Position numbers: made by a program. From the NCBI RefSeq assembly GCF_057098645.1, contig NZ_CM169472.1: 64,000 nt of DNA. One strand, given 5' to 3'. Positions 12,001 through 15,000 of this stretch are shown here, piece after piece (position 1 is the first letter of the stretch; each line of letters opens with the position of its first letter).

Positions 12001-15000
12001 GGTGATTTTTCCCGGTGCCGGTTTTACCGCTGAACACAAAATTCGTGCACCCGGTCATCAGTTCGTCAGCTATGGATTTGGCCTGGCTCAGCGCGTATTT
12101 TTGCCCGTCGTTCTGCACCTGATAATTCGCAAACGAGCATTTGCTGTGCAGAGGCTGGATGCCCGAACGATTCAGGATTTTTTCCACCCGCAACTGGTGA
12201 TTCTGGCGGTTAATCTCCTCGCTGCGTTTTCGTCCTTCAACAAGTTGCCATTCCCGCCACTCCTCCACCGTCCGGTACGGTGGAACCGACGCCTGTGGTG
12301 CAAGTCTGCGAATACGTTCAAGAACCCCGGCTGCCGCAATGTTTTTCATGCCACATCACCCCCTGAATCCCGGCGGAATTTCGGTATCCGGTTCAGAAAT
12401 ATGATTCACACAACGCTGGTTGTTCGTGCCGCTTACCGGGAGCAACCAGGGGTTTTCAAAATTCCGGTCCGGCCCAAAAAACGTCGTCGCTCGCTGAACA
12501 AATTCCGTTCCCGTTTTCCCGGTAGCCGCCAGGTATCTTGCGTAACGCCTCACACCATCCAGTATGGCCTCTGGTGGCACCCCCTCGCGTAATCTGGCCT
12601 TCCAGGCACTGAAAGCGGATTTCTTCGGGTTTGCCCCAGCACGCAACGGGTATTCCCGCCAGACCTGTTCGAACACATCCGGATAATCCACTCGTCCCAC
12701 AGGCTGCCCGGTGTTTTCCGGGACTACCCGATCGGCTTCCCGCTGAATGGCGGAATCGGCTTCAGGCTGCTGCAGTTGGTGTGATTGCTCCGGCCTTGCG
12801 GTCATCACCTGCTGCACAGCGCCCGAATCGGCTTTCAGCGCATACGCTGAATCGGCTTCCGGTGTCGTGCCTGCTGGCTGACCAGGATTGACGGTCTGAA
12901 CATCCCCTGCCTGGTTCGTGGCGTTTTTTACGCCATGGACCATAGTGTTTTGATCTTCTTGATCTGTATCTTTATCTGTATCTTTATCTGTATCTTTATC
13001 TGTCGTGACTCGTCGTGACATGTGCGTGACATTTCGTGACGCGCCGTGACAATCGCCATTTTGTTCCCGCTTTCTTTCCCTCTCTCGCTGCGCCCTCTTG
13101 CGCTCTGCAGGAGATTTTGCGGTTTGCGAAATATTGCCGTTGTCCTCTTTAAGCACCTGGCGTTTTTCCCATCCAGTGATTAAATCACCATCAAGTACCC
13201 GCCCCTGCATCGTCTGCAAAATTGAATCAATTACCTCTTCTGTCACGTCGAGCGCACTTGCCAAATCTTCTGTCGTGACATCAATGTGACCTCGCGTGAC
13301 ATTTCGTGACGCGCTCACCAGGAGGTGGATATACACTGCCATCACTGTTGCAATTGGCTGCCCTGACACCCTGGCAATTGTTCGCCACTTAGGGTCATTT
13401 GGCATGTCATGCCATAATCTGAGCCAGGCGTTAGCCATACTCACCTCTTCTGATACCGAATCTTTTTACTCACGAGTTGCCGGAAGCGATTCGATACGGC
13501 TATTGTCAGTCAATGTACTGCCACAGCATTTCCTGCCGGGCCACCACGGTTCATCTGATTGAAACCGGCGATTGCCACTGCGACAAAATCATCAGCGTCT
13601 CTCACCAGTCGCTCCCGCGTCTCCACCAGCTCCCGAAAATAAGCTGAACTGTGGCTGCGCATTCTGGCCACCAGCAAAGGTGGCATTGCCTTTTCGATCG
13701 CTGGTAACAACGCCTGAATTTTTTCAACTGCATCAGGGGTGTCTTTCTCTACCCAGCGGAAAATTTTCTGGGTATTGCGAGCCAGGGCTTCCGGATGGCT
13801 GTCGTCATACAGTTCAGGAAACGTCATACCCAACTCAAAATAAGCCTGGGTTATTCCAGCTGCTGGAACTTTTTCGCCATCAGGACGCGCCCAGGCATTC
13901 ATCGCCATGCGGATGTGTTCATGCTTGATTTTCATGAATCAAGCTCCTAGTAAGTGGTTGTGTTAACGTTTTGGTATCTTCCAGCTCGGGCCAAATATTC
14001 ATCCAATCAAAAGGCCTTAGTTGCTGACGTGTAACTTCACCATTACTGGCTCGCTCAATAAGGACACATAACGATGCCCCTAACATTTGACCTTTACTCA
14101 ATGCCTTTCTTAGATAACCGATGCTAGTACCACACTCACATGCAAACATACGCTGTTCATCTGACGAAAGAGAATTGAGAAATATTCTTAATTCTTCCAT
14201 AGCTACTCCTTAGTAAACACAGCAAGAATACCTACAGGTAAACAAAAGTCAATACCCTTGGGTTGTTTACCTTGCGGTAATCGCATCTATTATTTACCTA
14301 TGGACAAATATGAATTTAGACGACAACAACTCATCAAAATTCGTGATGAGAAATGCGATGGTAAAGCGGTTAACGTGGCCAGAAAGATCGGTCGCGAGCC
14401 TTCTTATGTATCAAGAATGTTGTACCCAGAGGGGAAAAAAGGAAAAAAACGGATCGCTGATGATATGGTGGAGATTATAGAAGAGTCCTTTGGGTTACCC
14501 CGGGGATGGATGGATGGTATCGTTTCATCATCAACGAACACAGCCTCCAATTATGAAACAAGGGTTCTAACGCCACGACAACGTATTTTTTTAGATCTCT
14601 TAGACGAACTGCCAGAAAGTGAAGCGGATAACTTATTAAAAACTCTTGAAGAGAAAAAACAGTATTACAATATGATCTACGAAGAAATCCGTAAAAAGAA
14701 AGCACAAAACGCATCATAACTCACCAAACAACCAGTCACCAGTTAAGACACATCAAAAAAATTACCCATGGGTATTTACTTTTTAAATACCCACGGGTAT
14801 CCTTCCTTTCATACCAACCCACCCCGTCCCACAGAACGCAGGGCAATACTTCGAGTTACCAGGCAGTGGTCAGGGGGTAAGTAGCCAGCCCGAGGCGTAA
14901 GAACATGACGGCAGGGTTCAACTTTAATAACTATGCAGCAGGTTTTTGTTCCGCTACCCCGGCGTTAAGGGGAAATGAGGTCAGCATGGATACTATCGAT

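Follow-up and report, generated by a model that had tools for sequence, protein, structure and literature searches.

The inverted repeat located between the repressor gene and the ydfA-like gene of a lambdoid prophage is, judged by its sequence and those of its relatives, very probably the OL/PL-type operator-promoter region of this prophage, homologous in role to dicBp of Qin. In the window, which is the complete 64-kb stretch of DNA analysed here, the repeat resolves into two 12-bp palindromes 25 bp apart, TACCCATGGGTA and TACCCACGGGTA, named OL-a and OL-b in Table 1. According to the proposed mechanism, OL-a would abut the -35 hexamer TTTACT of a sigma-70 promoter, and OL-b would fill the spacer and overlap the -10 hexamer TATCCT, transcription presumably starting near position 14810. 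This early-left promoter would read rightward through ydfA, a ydfB-like gene, dicF, dicB and an exonuclease gene. When both sites are occupied by dimers of the 139-aa repressor, as would be the case in the lysogen, RNA polymerase would be excluded and an operon encoding cell-division inhibitors thereby silenced; after derepression, the YdaS-type Cro protein would probably bind the same sites.

Table 1. Features of the immunity region and their positions in the window
Feature	Position	Strand	Evidence
cro-like (YdaS-type) gene, divergent from the repressor gene	13919..14200	-	weak Pfam YdaS_toxin match; phrog_35
cro-side (PR-like) promoter TTGACT-16-TATTCT	14225..14252	-	promoter scan
OR1-like operator TACCTACAGGTA, overlaps -10 of cro-side promoter	14229..14240	.	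motif and promoter scan
OR2-like operator TACCCTTGGGTT, right end degenerate, adjoins -35 of cro-side promoter	14253..14264	.	repeat search and alignment
repressor (PRM-like) promoter TTTACC-16-TATTAT	14266..14293	+	promoter scan
OR3-like operator TACCTTGCGGTA, overlaps -35 of repressor promoter	14268..14279	.	motif and promoter scan
repressor gene, 139 aa	14300..14719	+	N-terminal XRE-type HTH domain resembling that of mEp043 cI; C-terminal helix resembling that of DicA; S24 peptidase absent
A7 tract upstream of OL-a, equivalent to T7 run after minus-strand hairpin	14754..14760	+	seen in sequence
whole inverted repeat/hairpin	14763..14799	.	16-nt arms, 5-nt loop
putative operator OL-a, perfect 12-bp palindrome TACCCATGGGTA, directly upstream of -35	14763..14774	.	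exact TACCNNNNGGTA match
predicted -35 hexamer TTTACT of early-left (PL-like/dicBp-like) promoter	14775..14780	+	alignment with cro-side TTGACT and five other cassettes
putative operator OL-b TACCCACGGGTA, in promoter spacer, overlapping -10	14788..14799	.	motif match and cassette alignment
predicted -10 hexamer TATCCT, 17 nt past -35; its TA ends OL-b	14798..14803	+	cassette alignment
conserved leader of ydfA operon; start of sequence common to prophages of other immunity types	14810..14985	+	mosaic boundary
ydfA-like gene (DUF1391), first gene of operon under predicted promoter	14986..15138	+	Pfam E = 1.9e-28

Structure and folding of the inverted repeat

The initial annotation had reported near-perfect 15-bp arms situated after the repressor stop and before the ydfA-like gene. 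Both statements are correct: the arms are found at 14764-14778 and 14784-14798, and 44 nt separate the stop codon (TAA, 14717-14719) from position 14764. A repeat search extended each arm by one base to 16 nt (14763-14778 and 14784-14799); 15 of the 16 positions (94%) are complementary and the loop comprises 5 nt. The sole mismatch, A14768 versus C14794, is due to a private SNP at the latter position, which is occupied by T in a locus with 99.9% identity (L001), so that the repeat is perfect there. Such a repeat is far above chance expectation: when inverted repeats with 16-nt arms, at most one mismatch and a loop of 3-10 nt were searched for, none was present in 40 sequences resampled from a first-order Markov model of the window, and the real window contained three, at 14763, 25154 and 28076.

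Folded as RNA, the repeat reaches -20.1 kcal/mol on the plus strand (z = -5.8) and -25.4 kcal/mol on the minus strand (z = -5.2). This hairpin is largely a by-product of the two palindromic operators, since two adjacent palindromes of this kind inevitably form an inverted repeat. The four inner stem pairs TTTA/TAAA derive from the -35 hexamer and the spacer and tighten the loop to 5 nt; they are absent in the phages mEp043 and CharmingMan and specific to the immunity type of the window. The A7 tract preceding OL-a, whose length among relatives ranges from A4 to A8 and which is likewise lacking in both phages, may be a tract of the UP-element type or the tail of a terminator.

The operator motif and the promoter cassettes

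The motif TACC-N4-GGTA (TACCNNNNGGTA) has four exact matches in the 64 kb, where 0.39 are expected; none of 100 shuffles reached this number. Two of the matches lie within the repeat and the other two in the 99-bp divergent region between the repressor and cro genes, which also contains a fifth, degenerate copy at 14253. Exact copies are thus restricted to the OR- and OL-like regions. A third OL operator was not detected, as no more TACC...GGTA occurs within 45 bp on either side of the repeat. Of the initial proposal that the repeat is a protein-binding site, the core stands, given the recurrence of the motif in the repressor/cro region; in place of one site with two arms, the element most plausibly comprises two 12-bp operators arranged around a promoter.

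The correspondence between the two regions goes beyond the motif. The surroundings of OR2 and OL-a share a 25-nt match at 84%, and the plus strand from 14750 to 14815 aligns with the minus strand from 14278 to 14213 with 41 matches in 66 positions, the two operator cores and the two hexamers being in register. The minus-strand partner in this alignment is the promoter TTGACT-16-TATTCT detected by the scan; the OL and the cro-side promoter cassettes are paralogous. In the repeat region, the order of elements is operator, -35, 7 nt, and an operator running into the -10, and this layout is common to all six PL/PR cassettes of the window, mEp043 and CharmingMan. OL-a lines up with the upstream operators of the cro-side cassette and of the PL/PR cassettes of the two phages, and the predicted -10 TATCCT aligns with TATTCT (PR of the window), TATATT (annotated PL of mEp043), TAAACT, TATATT and TAATAT. 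Taken by itself, the predicted promoter TTTACT-17-TATCCT is weak, with 8 of 12 consensus matches; it scored below the threshold of the promoter scan and was not listed by it. On the repressor side, the PRM-like -10 ends only 6 nt ahead of the ATG (14300), and for this reason the repressor mRNA is probably leaderless. Downstream of the repeat, ydfA is followed by dicF (17650-17701) and dicB. A structured leader or put-like antiterminator RNA between promoter and ydfA was considered and rejected: positions 14808-14990 fold no better than shuffled sequences (z = +0.75).

Repressor and Cro-like proteins

The N-terminal 86 residues of the repressor are 65% identical to mEp043 cI, and the Cro-like protein is 73% identical to mEp043 Cro (gp51). 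The C-terminal 46 residues of the repressor align with DicA (33% identity, E = 1e-7), and no other part does; correspondingly, the NCBIfam model NF007257 gave no full-length DicA match (24.1 bits versus a cut-off of 101, residues 84-136 only). The repressor is DicA-like in manner, being short and without a peptidase, yet it is no member of the DicA subfamily. A Pfam search of the repressor assigned no family and found neither HTH_3 nor HTH, and a comparison of its sequence with those of solved structures yielded nothing significant (best E = 0.075). In the AlphaFold model (mean pLDDT 81), helices 23-30 and 34-41 form a helix-turn-helix. The Foldseek matches of this model are almost all XRE-type HTH regulators, with weak E-values of at least 1.4e-3; the best structural match is 5D50, an antirepressor-controlled Salmonella phage repressor (rmsd 1.2-1.8 Å over 72 residues). 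As modelled, the N-terminal domain has an XRE/Cro/CI-type HTH fold.

Relatives, mosaic boundary and sequence variation

In mEp043 and CharmingMan, whose repressors have N-terminal domains about 65% identical to that of the window repressor, the motif occurs three times at OR, with spacings of 24-25 and 15 bp, and a motif pair 25-26 bp apart follows the repressor gene. The mEp043 pair falls under the 'putative PL' of the depositors (L004, 3608-3636), a designation that is annotation and not experiment. No study of the mEp043 switch is apparent by title or abstract among the matches listed of the literature mentioning this phage. The motif is inherited together with the DNA-binding domain of the repressor and with Cro: both phages combine the same N-terminus and the same motif with an S24 peptidase C-terminus, and a DicA-like C-terminus joined to another N-terminus (L003, DicA of Qin) is accompanied by different repeats at the same place. 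This comparison of sequences indicates that operator specificity tracks the N-terminal DNA-binding domain.

Prophages of other immunity types share the sequence of the window only from about position 14810 onward; just upstream of the shared sequence they possess their own promoter hexamers and their own repeats matching their OR. The mosaic junction lies approximately 10-20 bp to the right of the repeat. The module is present in 821 of 5426 complete E. coli genomes (about 15%), STEC strains and O157:H7 Z1766 included, and the segment from OR to OL is carried as one piece in all 821.

Variation was studied in 103 loci, which were gathered via the invariant core and represent 26 five-site haplotypes. 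Across these loci, the outer TACC/GGTA are almost invariant, those of OL-a entirely so, and the central four bases vary; in the 26 haplotypes, 16 of 20 central positions are variable versus 4 of 40 outer ones (Fisher p = 1e-7). OL-b occurs among relatives as TACCTATGGGTA, TACCCATGGGTA and TACCTGTGGGTA, with differences confined to the centre. Fixed half-sites with a free centre are the pattern of dimeric HTH operators, and the operators of phage 933W are constrained at the outside and free in the centre in the same way (PMC3317979). Pairing between the sites is less uniform. Among nine distinct combinations of OL-a and OL-b, three pair perfectly, two deviate by a G.T alone, a pairing acceptable only on the plus strand, and four contain true mismatches; perfect pairing of the 12-mers occurs in only 22 of the 103 loci. 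In the common variant it is the plus strand that benefits from the wobble; in the window it is the minus strand. In lineage A19, two double changes have left both sites exact reverse complements, a covariation not expected from the operator model. Covariation was set aside as an argument for an RNA stem, because nine arm combinations and one lineage with double changes are too little to decide.

Alternative explanations

The strongest competing consideration is that the repeat acts, instead of or besides being a pair of operators, as an intrinsic (rho-independent) and possibly bidirectional terminator, which on the plus strand would end the repressor transcript before the toxic dicF/dicB operon and on the minus strand would stop antisense transcription, e.g. 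from a small gene at 15789-16010, before the repressor gene. The initial annotation had dismissed a terminator on the grounds that no U-run follows the repeat. This is strictly true of the plus strand, though its tail TCCTTCCTTTCAT is rich in pyrimidines and U, and the tail scores are marginal, with -2.9 for the window and -3.1 for the common variant TCCTTCTTTTCAT. It does not apply to the minus strand, where a 16-bp stem with a 5-nt loop runs directly into ATTTTTTTGA with its T7 (tail score -3.95); the terminator scan listed this site, and the T-run is kept in relatives (T5-T7). The dismissal was therefore too quick. The hairpin is stable on both strands (-19.3 to -25.4 kcal/mol, z about -5), and the 44 nt between repressor stop and repeat hold no separate terminator, in contrast to mEp043 with a canonical one upstream of its operators. 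The inner TTTA/TAAA extension is limited to this immunity type. The minus-strand gene at 15789-16010, which encodes 73 aa, has a promoter-like site (16026-15997), and from 15789 to the repeat this strand contains no other terminator-like site. However, any two palindromic operators of this type combined with an AT-rich -10 yield a hairpin with a U-rich tail: PL of mEp043 folds with -17.1 kcal/mol and has a tail score of -3.65 despite the separate terminator of this phage, which indicates that the terminator-like appearance is partly automatic. Moreover, the 16-bp stem contains just 6 G-C pairs, the arms pair perfectly in only three of the nine OL-a/OL-b combinations, and about 1 kb lies between the repeat and the end of the nearest minus-strand gene. 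Other immunity types with the same downstream genes have no comparable hairpin; these include L002, which possesses the same minus-strand gene and lacks a hairpin at its OL, so that a terminator serving the 73-aa gene is only a possibility and was not adopted. On balance, we regard any real role in termination as rather unlikely, and termination as the sole function as very improbable.

A tentative variant, to which we give limited credence, is a dual use of the 37 bp, which as DNA would provide the OL operators and the core of PL and would act as a bidirectional terminator when transcribed from outside. Transcripts from PL would start downstream of the hairpin and consequently escape termination. 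The inner TTTA/TAAA pairs, the A-run with the U-rich tail and the lack of a separate terminator fit this idea, and none of these three features is found in mEp043 or CharmingMan; the operator model has no need of the inner pairs or of the conserved A-run/T-run. If dual use is true, the element would insulate the two units from each other, keeping PRM read-through on the plus strand out of the toxic dicF/dicB operon and antisense transcription from the embedded minus-strand gene out of the repressor gene.

An RNA processing hairpin had been offered by the initial annotation as an alternative to a protein-binding site. A 3'-terminal stem-loop of the repressor mRNA might be cleaved by RNase III or might block 3' exonucleases, and a stable one does lie on the coding strand 44 nt past the stop. 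We nevertheless consider this function highly improbable, as nothing specific speaks for it: a permissive scan of 14650-15000 found no Rfam family, its sole hit being a generic, sub-threshold one to mir-2041 (28.9 bits versus a gathering score of 70), arm pairing is inconsistently kept in relatives, consistent compensatory variation is missing, and the three OR sites, which form no such hairpin, likewise have fixed outer and free central bases. At the gathering threshold, Rfam reported only DicF and the IS3 ALIL pseudoknot between 13000 and 20000. Finally, the repeat might be a functionless chance product or structural relic, for instance a scar left where recombination linked the immunity module to the ydfA leader, or a quasipalindrome whose symmetry template switching maintains. 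The proximity of the mosaic junction, 10-20 bp to the right, would suit a scar, and the multi-base changes of A19 keep the sites exact reverse complements; template-switch correction of quasipalindromes would produce paired multi-base changes of this kind. Against a relic stand the excess of the repeat over chance, the presence of the motif at OR and in two functional phages, the clear constraint on the outer bases, and the preservation of the segment as a unit in 821 genomes, which make it scarcely credible. The OL/PL-type region therefore is the reading we prefer.

Comparison with known systems

The closest counterpart by position and operon is the DicA-dicBp system of Qin, where the same order of repressor gene, operators/promoter, ydfA, dicF and dicB is found. 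The two DicA-type repeats of Qin, ATGTTAGCTATAGCATACA and ATGTTAGTCATGGCTAATCT, lie on either side of the -35 TTGACC and overlap the -10; dicBp is repressed 22-fold by DicA via operators between dicA and ydfA (PMC10448788). The repressor of the window shares with DicA the C-terminal segment and the lack of a peptidase domain. The DNA-binding domain and the operator are unrelated, TACC-N4-GGTA here versus TTGTTAGTCATAACTAACAA in Qin (PMC3441716), and dicBp has three operator sequences (PMC10448788) versus two clear sites in the window. Moreover, the ydfA leader of the window exceeds that of Qin by about 130 nt.

In lambda, PL lies downstream of the repressor gene in the same orientation, and its -35 and -10 are overlapped by dyad operators that also occur at OR. 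The layout of the lambda switch is summarised in PMC8630535. The window resembles it in having repeated dyad operators common to OR, which would cover the predicted -35 and -10 downstream of a co-oriented repressor gene, in having three OR sites over divergent PR and PRM, and in a repressor mRNA that is probably leaderless. Unlike lambda, it has two 12-bp core sites instead of three 17-bp sites, and the distance between OL and OR is about 510 bp instead of 2.4 kb. A downstream N gene or nut site, a RecA-cleavable repressor domain and a separate terminator between repressor gene and OL are missing.

With mEp043 and CharmingMan, the window has in common the motif, the 25-bp spacing, the cassette layout and a homologous repressor N-terminal domain (65%), and with mEp043 additionally Cro (73%). 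The differences from mEp043 are the S24 peptidase C-terminal domain of its cI, an N gene driven by its PL, a canonical terminator ahead of its operators, and a weaker hairpin with a 13-nt loop that lacks the inner TTTA/TAAA pairs and the A-run. CP-933P has a lambdoid immunity region of the YdaS/YdaT type with a second promoter carrying OR-like repeats (PMC8630535), to which the predicted early-left promoter of the window corresponds. In CP-933P, PL933P with OL1-OL3 is repressed about 100-fold by PaaR2, the CI analogue, and by YdaS, the Cro analogue (PMC8630535). It differs from the window in its repressor (PaaR2), its operator consensus GTTTAGTAA, the number of three operators, a toxin-antitoxin pair following the repressor, and the downstream genes.

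Implications

The element is of an ordinary, well-understood kind, and the understanding of lambdoid switches is unchanged by this result; the repressor type itself is uncharacterised. For this type, the analysis defines the operator TACC-N4-GGTA, three OR and two OL sites, and a likely early-left promoter, a prediction that can be taken directly into EMSA and reporter assays. The relatives represent a natural domain swap, in which specificity would go with the N-terminal domain and the C-terminal module alternates between a DicA-like helix and a LexA-like peptidase. The promoter, as predicted here, would control homologues of dicF and dicB, which links it to cell division, phage resistance and the regulation of EHEC virulence.

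Two probable operators within the inverted repeat

The inverted repeat downstream of the repressor gene is real, and each arm is one base longer than initially annotated (16 nt; 14763-14778 and 14784-14799). A repeat search of the window found 15 of 16 arm positions complementary around a 5-nt loop. When the window was resampled 40 times under a first-order Markov model, no repeat of equal quality arose; the real 64 kb has them at only three positions, 14763, 25154 and 28076. The latter two are the sole other comparable inverted repeats (16-nt arms, at most one mismatch, loops of 4-5 nt), and the arms at 25154 pair without any mismatch. 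RNA folding gave -20.1 kcal/mol for the plus and -25.4 kcal/mol for the minus strand, each about 5 sd better than shuffles. The sole mismatch, A14768 versus C14794, is a private SNP of the window: in the 99.9%-identical locus L001, T replaces C14794 and the repeat is perfect. The flanking genes were borne out as a repressor-like ORF (14300-14719) and a DUF1391/ydfA gene (14986-15138).

Each arm contains a 12-bp palindrome (OL-a and OL-b; see the table), with centres 25 bp apart. The pattern TACCNNNNGGTA has four exact matches in the window, compared with 0.39 expected, and none of 100 shuffles gets to four. The remaining two, at 14229 and 14268, are located in OR, the 99 bp that separate the repressor gene from its divergently oriented cro-like neighbour. 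When the plus strand of 14750-14815 was aligned with the cro-side minus strand of 14278-14213, 41 of 66 positions were identical, and both cassettes have the same layout: an operator, immediately a -35 element, 7 nt, and a second operator whose last two bases, TA, open the -10 element. The alignment and this layout therefore suggest that the repeat is a second promoter-operator cassette, aimed rightward at ydfA; its promoter scores 8/12, under the threshold of the consensus scan. Judged from sequence, an OL/PL-type operator-promoter role is very probable, with binding, repression and start site being predictions. The initial annotation of a protein-binding site thus holds in substance, but the picture of a single site with 15-bp arms gives way to two 12-bp palindromes.

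Features of the operator-promoter region, the downstream operon and equivalent promoters of other prophages
Feature	Position	Strand	Sequence	Remark
OL-a, palindrome within left arm	14763-14774		TACCCATGGGTA	12 bp
OL-b, palindrome within right arm	14788-14799		TACCCACGGGTA	12 bp
Fifth operator copy	14253		TACCCTTGGGTT	degenerate
Repeat-side promoter		plus	-35 TTTACT, -10 TATCCT	inferred from alignment with cro side
Cro-side promoter		minus	-35 TTGACT, -10 TATTCT	called independently by consensus scan
Repressor promoter-like site	14266-14293		TTTACC-16-TATTAT	-35 overlapped by third OR site
IS3-family transposase ORFs	17237-17563, 16350-17240	minus
ALIL frameshift pseudoknot of IS3-family element	17166-17282
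dicF	17650-17701
dicB	17882-18070
L002 promoter	equivalent relative to boundary or ydfA		TTGACC-17-TAAACT
L003 promoter	equivalent relative to boundary or ydfA		TTTACA-17-CATTAT
Qin promoter	equivalent relative to boundary or ydfA		TTGACC with TAATCT

The hairpin as a possible terminator

The initial annotation had dismissed a terminator outright, which was too strong, as the minus strand carries a T-run after the stem and the plus-strand tail is U-rich. Two side-by-side palindromic sites must, however, read as an inverted repeat, and the tail is U-rich because the AT-rich -10 element comes after the second site. We regard a genuine additional terminator role as unlikely. It would fit the four extra inner pairs (TTTA/TAAA) that cut the loop to 5 nt in the window's type, the upstream A4-A8 run that forms the minus-strand T-run, and the lack of any other terminator after the repressor gene. 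Yet other variants have broken pairs in the stem, and the common variant has a G.T tolerated on the plus strand only, whereas the mismatch in the window can be tolerated on the minus strand only. Other immunity types are without such a hairpin, and PL of phage mEp043 also shows a hairpin and tail (-17.1 kcal/mol, tail score -3.65) although this phage has a separate canonical terminator upstream. In favour of the role, both sites have changed in the divergent lineage A19 (an E. coli isolate from a bat; locus L007, about 2054-2090), OL-a to CACA and OL-b to TGTG, and are still exact reverse complements; this paired change may stem from selection on the hairpin or from template-switch correction of a quasipalindrome.

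Conservation and comparison with other phages

Via the invariant core GGTATTTACTTTTTAAATACC, 103 loci were gathered, 93 of which have the OR anchor 508-511 bp upstream; OR through OL is carried as one block in 821/821 complete E. coli genomes with the module. Among 26 five-site haplotypes, central positions (5-8) are polymorphic at 16 of 20 and outer positions at 4 of 40 (p = 1e-7). Dimeric HTH sites show this combination of a free centre and putatively contacted half-sites, as described for the 933W operators (PMC3317979). The central four bases are unusually polymorphic in all five operators (14767-14770 and 14792-14795 at OL).

In mEp043 and a second phage, CharmingMan, OR has three motif sites with spacings of 24-25 and 15 bp, and a motif pair 25-26 bp apart lies beyond the repressor gene, in mEp043 under a putative PL annotated by the depositor. 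With the window, mEp043, whose switch is uncharacterised, has operators and DNA-binding domain in common. The prophages L003 and Qin, whose repressors have a DicA-like C-terminus and another N-terminal domain, have other repeats at the corresponding position, which visibly match each prophage's own OR; those of Qin match the experimentally supported DicA Oc operator family (PMC3441716). L002, with an unrelated LexA-type repressor, again has its own repeats there. Because the motif follows the DNA-binding domain, the defining trait of an operator, we take it as such; the element is very probably OL/PL of a lambdoid immunity module. In mEp043 (locus L004), a wider palindrome at 3552-3575, TTACCTG-N10-CAGGTAA, has the same half-site with other spacing and precedes the OL pair by about 20 bp; it may be a third site of different spacing.

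Prophages of other repressor types align to the window only from about 14810, at ...CCCACCCCGCCCCACAGAA..., and the repeat therefore lies right at the border of the immunity-specific segment. The common segment starts approximately where a TATCCT-driven transcript is predicted to start. A leader of about 130 nt before ydfA (14810-14950) is nearly identical in prophages of three different repressor types and absent from Qin of K-12; folding gave no unusual structure for it (z = +0.75).

Proposed regulation of the early operon

In the lysogen, the repressor would fill both sites and bar RNA polymerase from the PL-like promoter, which would silence ydfA, the ydfB-like gene, dicF, dicB and the exonuclease gene. 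This mechanism resembles two experimentally studied systems, Qin, where DicA represses dicBp 22-fold (PMC10448788), and CP-933P, where PaaR2 and YdaS repress PL933P about 100-fold (PMC8630535).

Just upstream of dicF, the early-left operon is interrupted by an IS3-family element (16307-17616), which should uncouple dicF/dicB from the PL-like promoter. L001 runs from the same left junction straight into dicF without the IS; since window and L001 are only 86% identical past the insertion, the IS could lie at a recombination joint. A 73-aa gene (15789-16010, minus strand; phrog_4274, WP_001133037.1) lies antisense within the operon, with a promoter-like site of its own at 16026-15997; no terminator-like site was found in the roughly 1 kb from this gene down to the operator hairpin.

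A chimeric repressor

The -10 element of the PRM-like repressor promoter ends at 14293, the ATG is at 14300, and no Shine-Dalgarno sequence lies between them; the mRNA is probably leaderless, like those of lambda cI and paaR2 (PMC8630535). A Pfam search found no domain in the protein. Over residues 1-86 it shares 65% identity with mEp043 cI, in the N-terminal part outside the peptidase domain; the cro-like protein shares 73% with mEp043 Cro. Further on, residues 89-134 of the repressor match the C-terminal segments of DicA (33% identity, E = 1e-7) and of the short L003 repressor. In the structure model (mean pLDDT 81), a helical N-terminal domain containing a helix-turn-helix is joined by a disordered linker to a long helix at the C-terminus; the model's structural neighbours are XRE-type HTH regulators, the top one being 5D50, the structure of a Salmonella phage repressor together with its antirepressor. 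With 24 bits versus a cut-off of 101 for NCBI's DicA family, the repressor is outside that family, although the element would work like DicA-dicBp. The protein is thus a naturally occurring chimera, with an mEp043-cI-like DNA-binding domain attached to a DicA-like C-terminal helix, whereas mEp043 and CharmingMan join the same DNA-binding domain to an S24 peptidase domain. Thus, induction chemistry (antirepressor versus RecA cleavage) appears to be exchanged independently of operator specificity.
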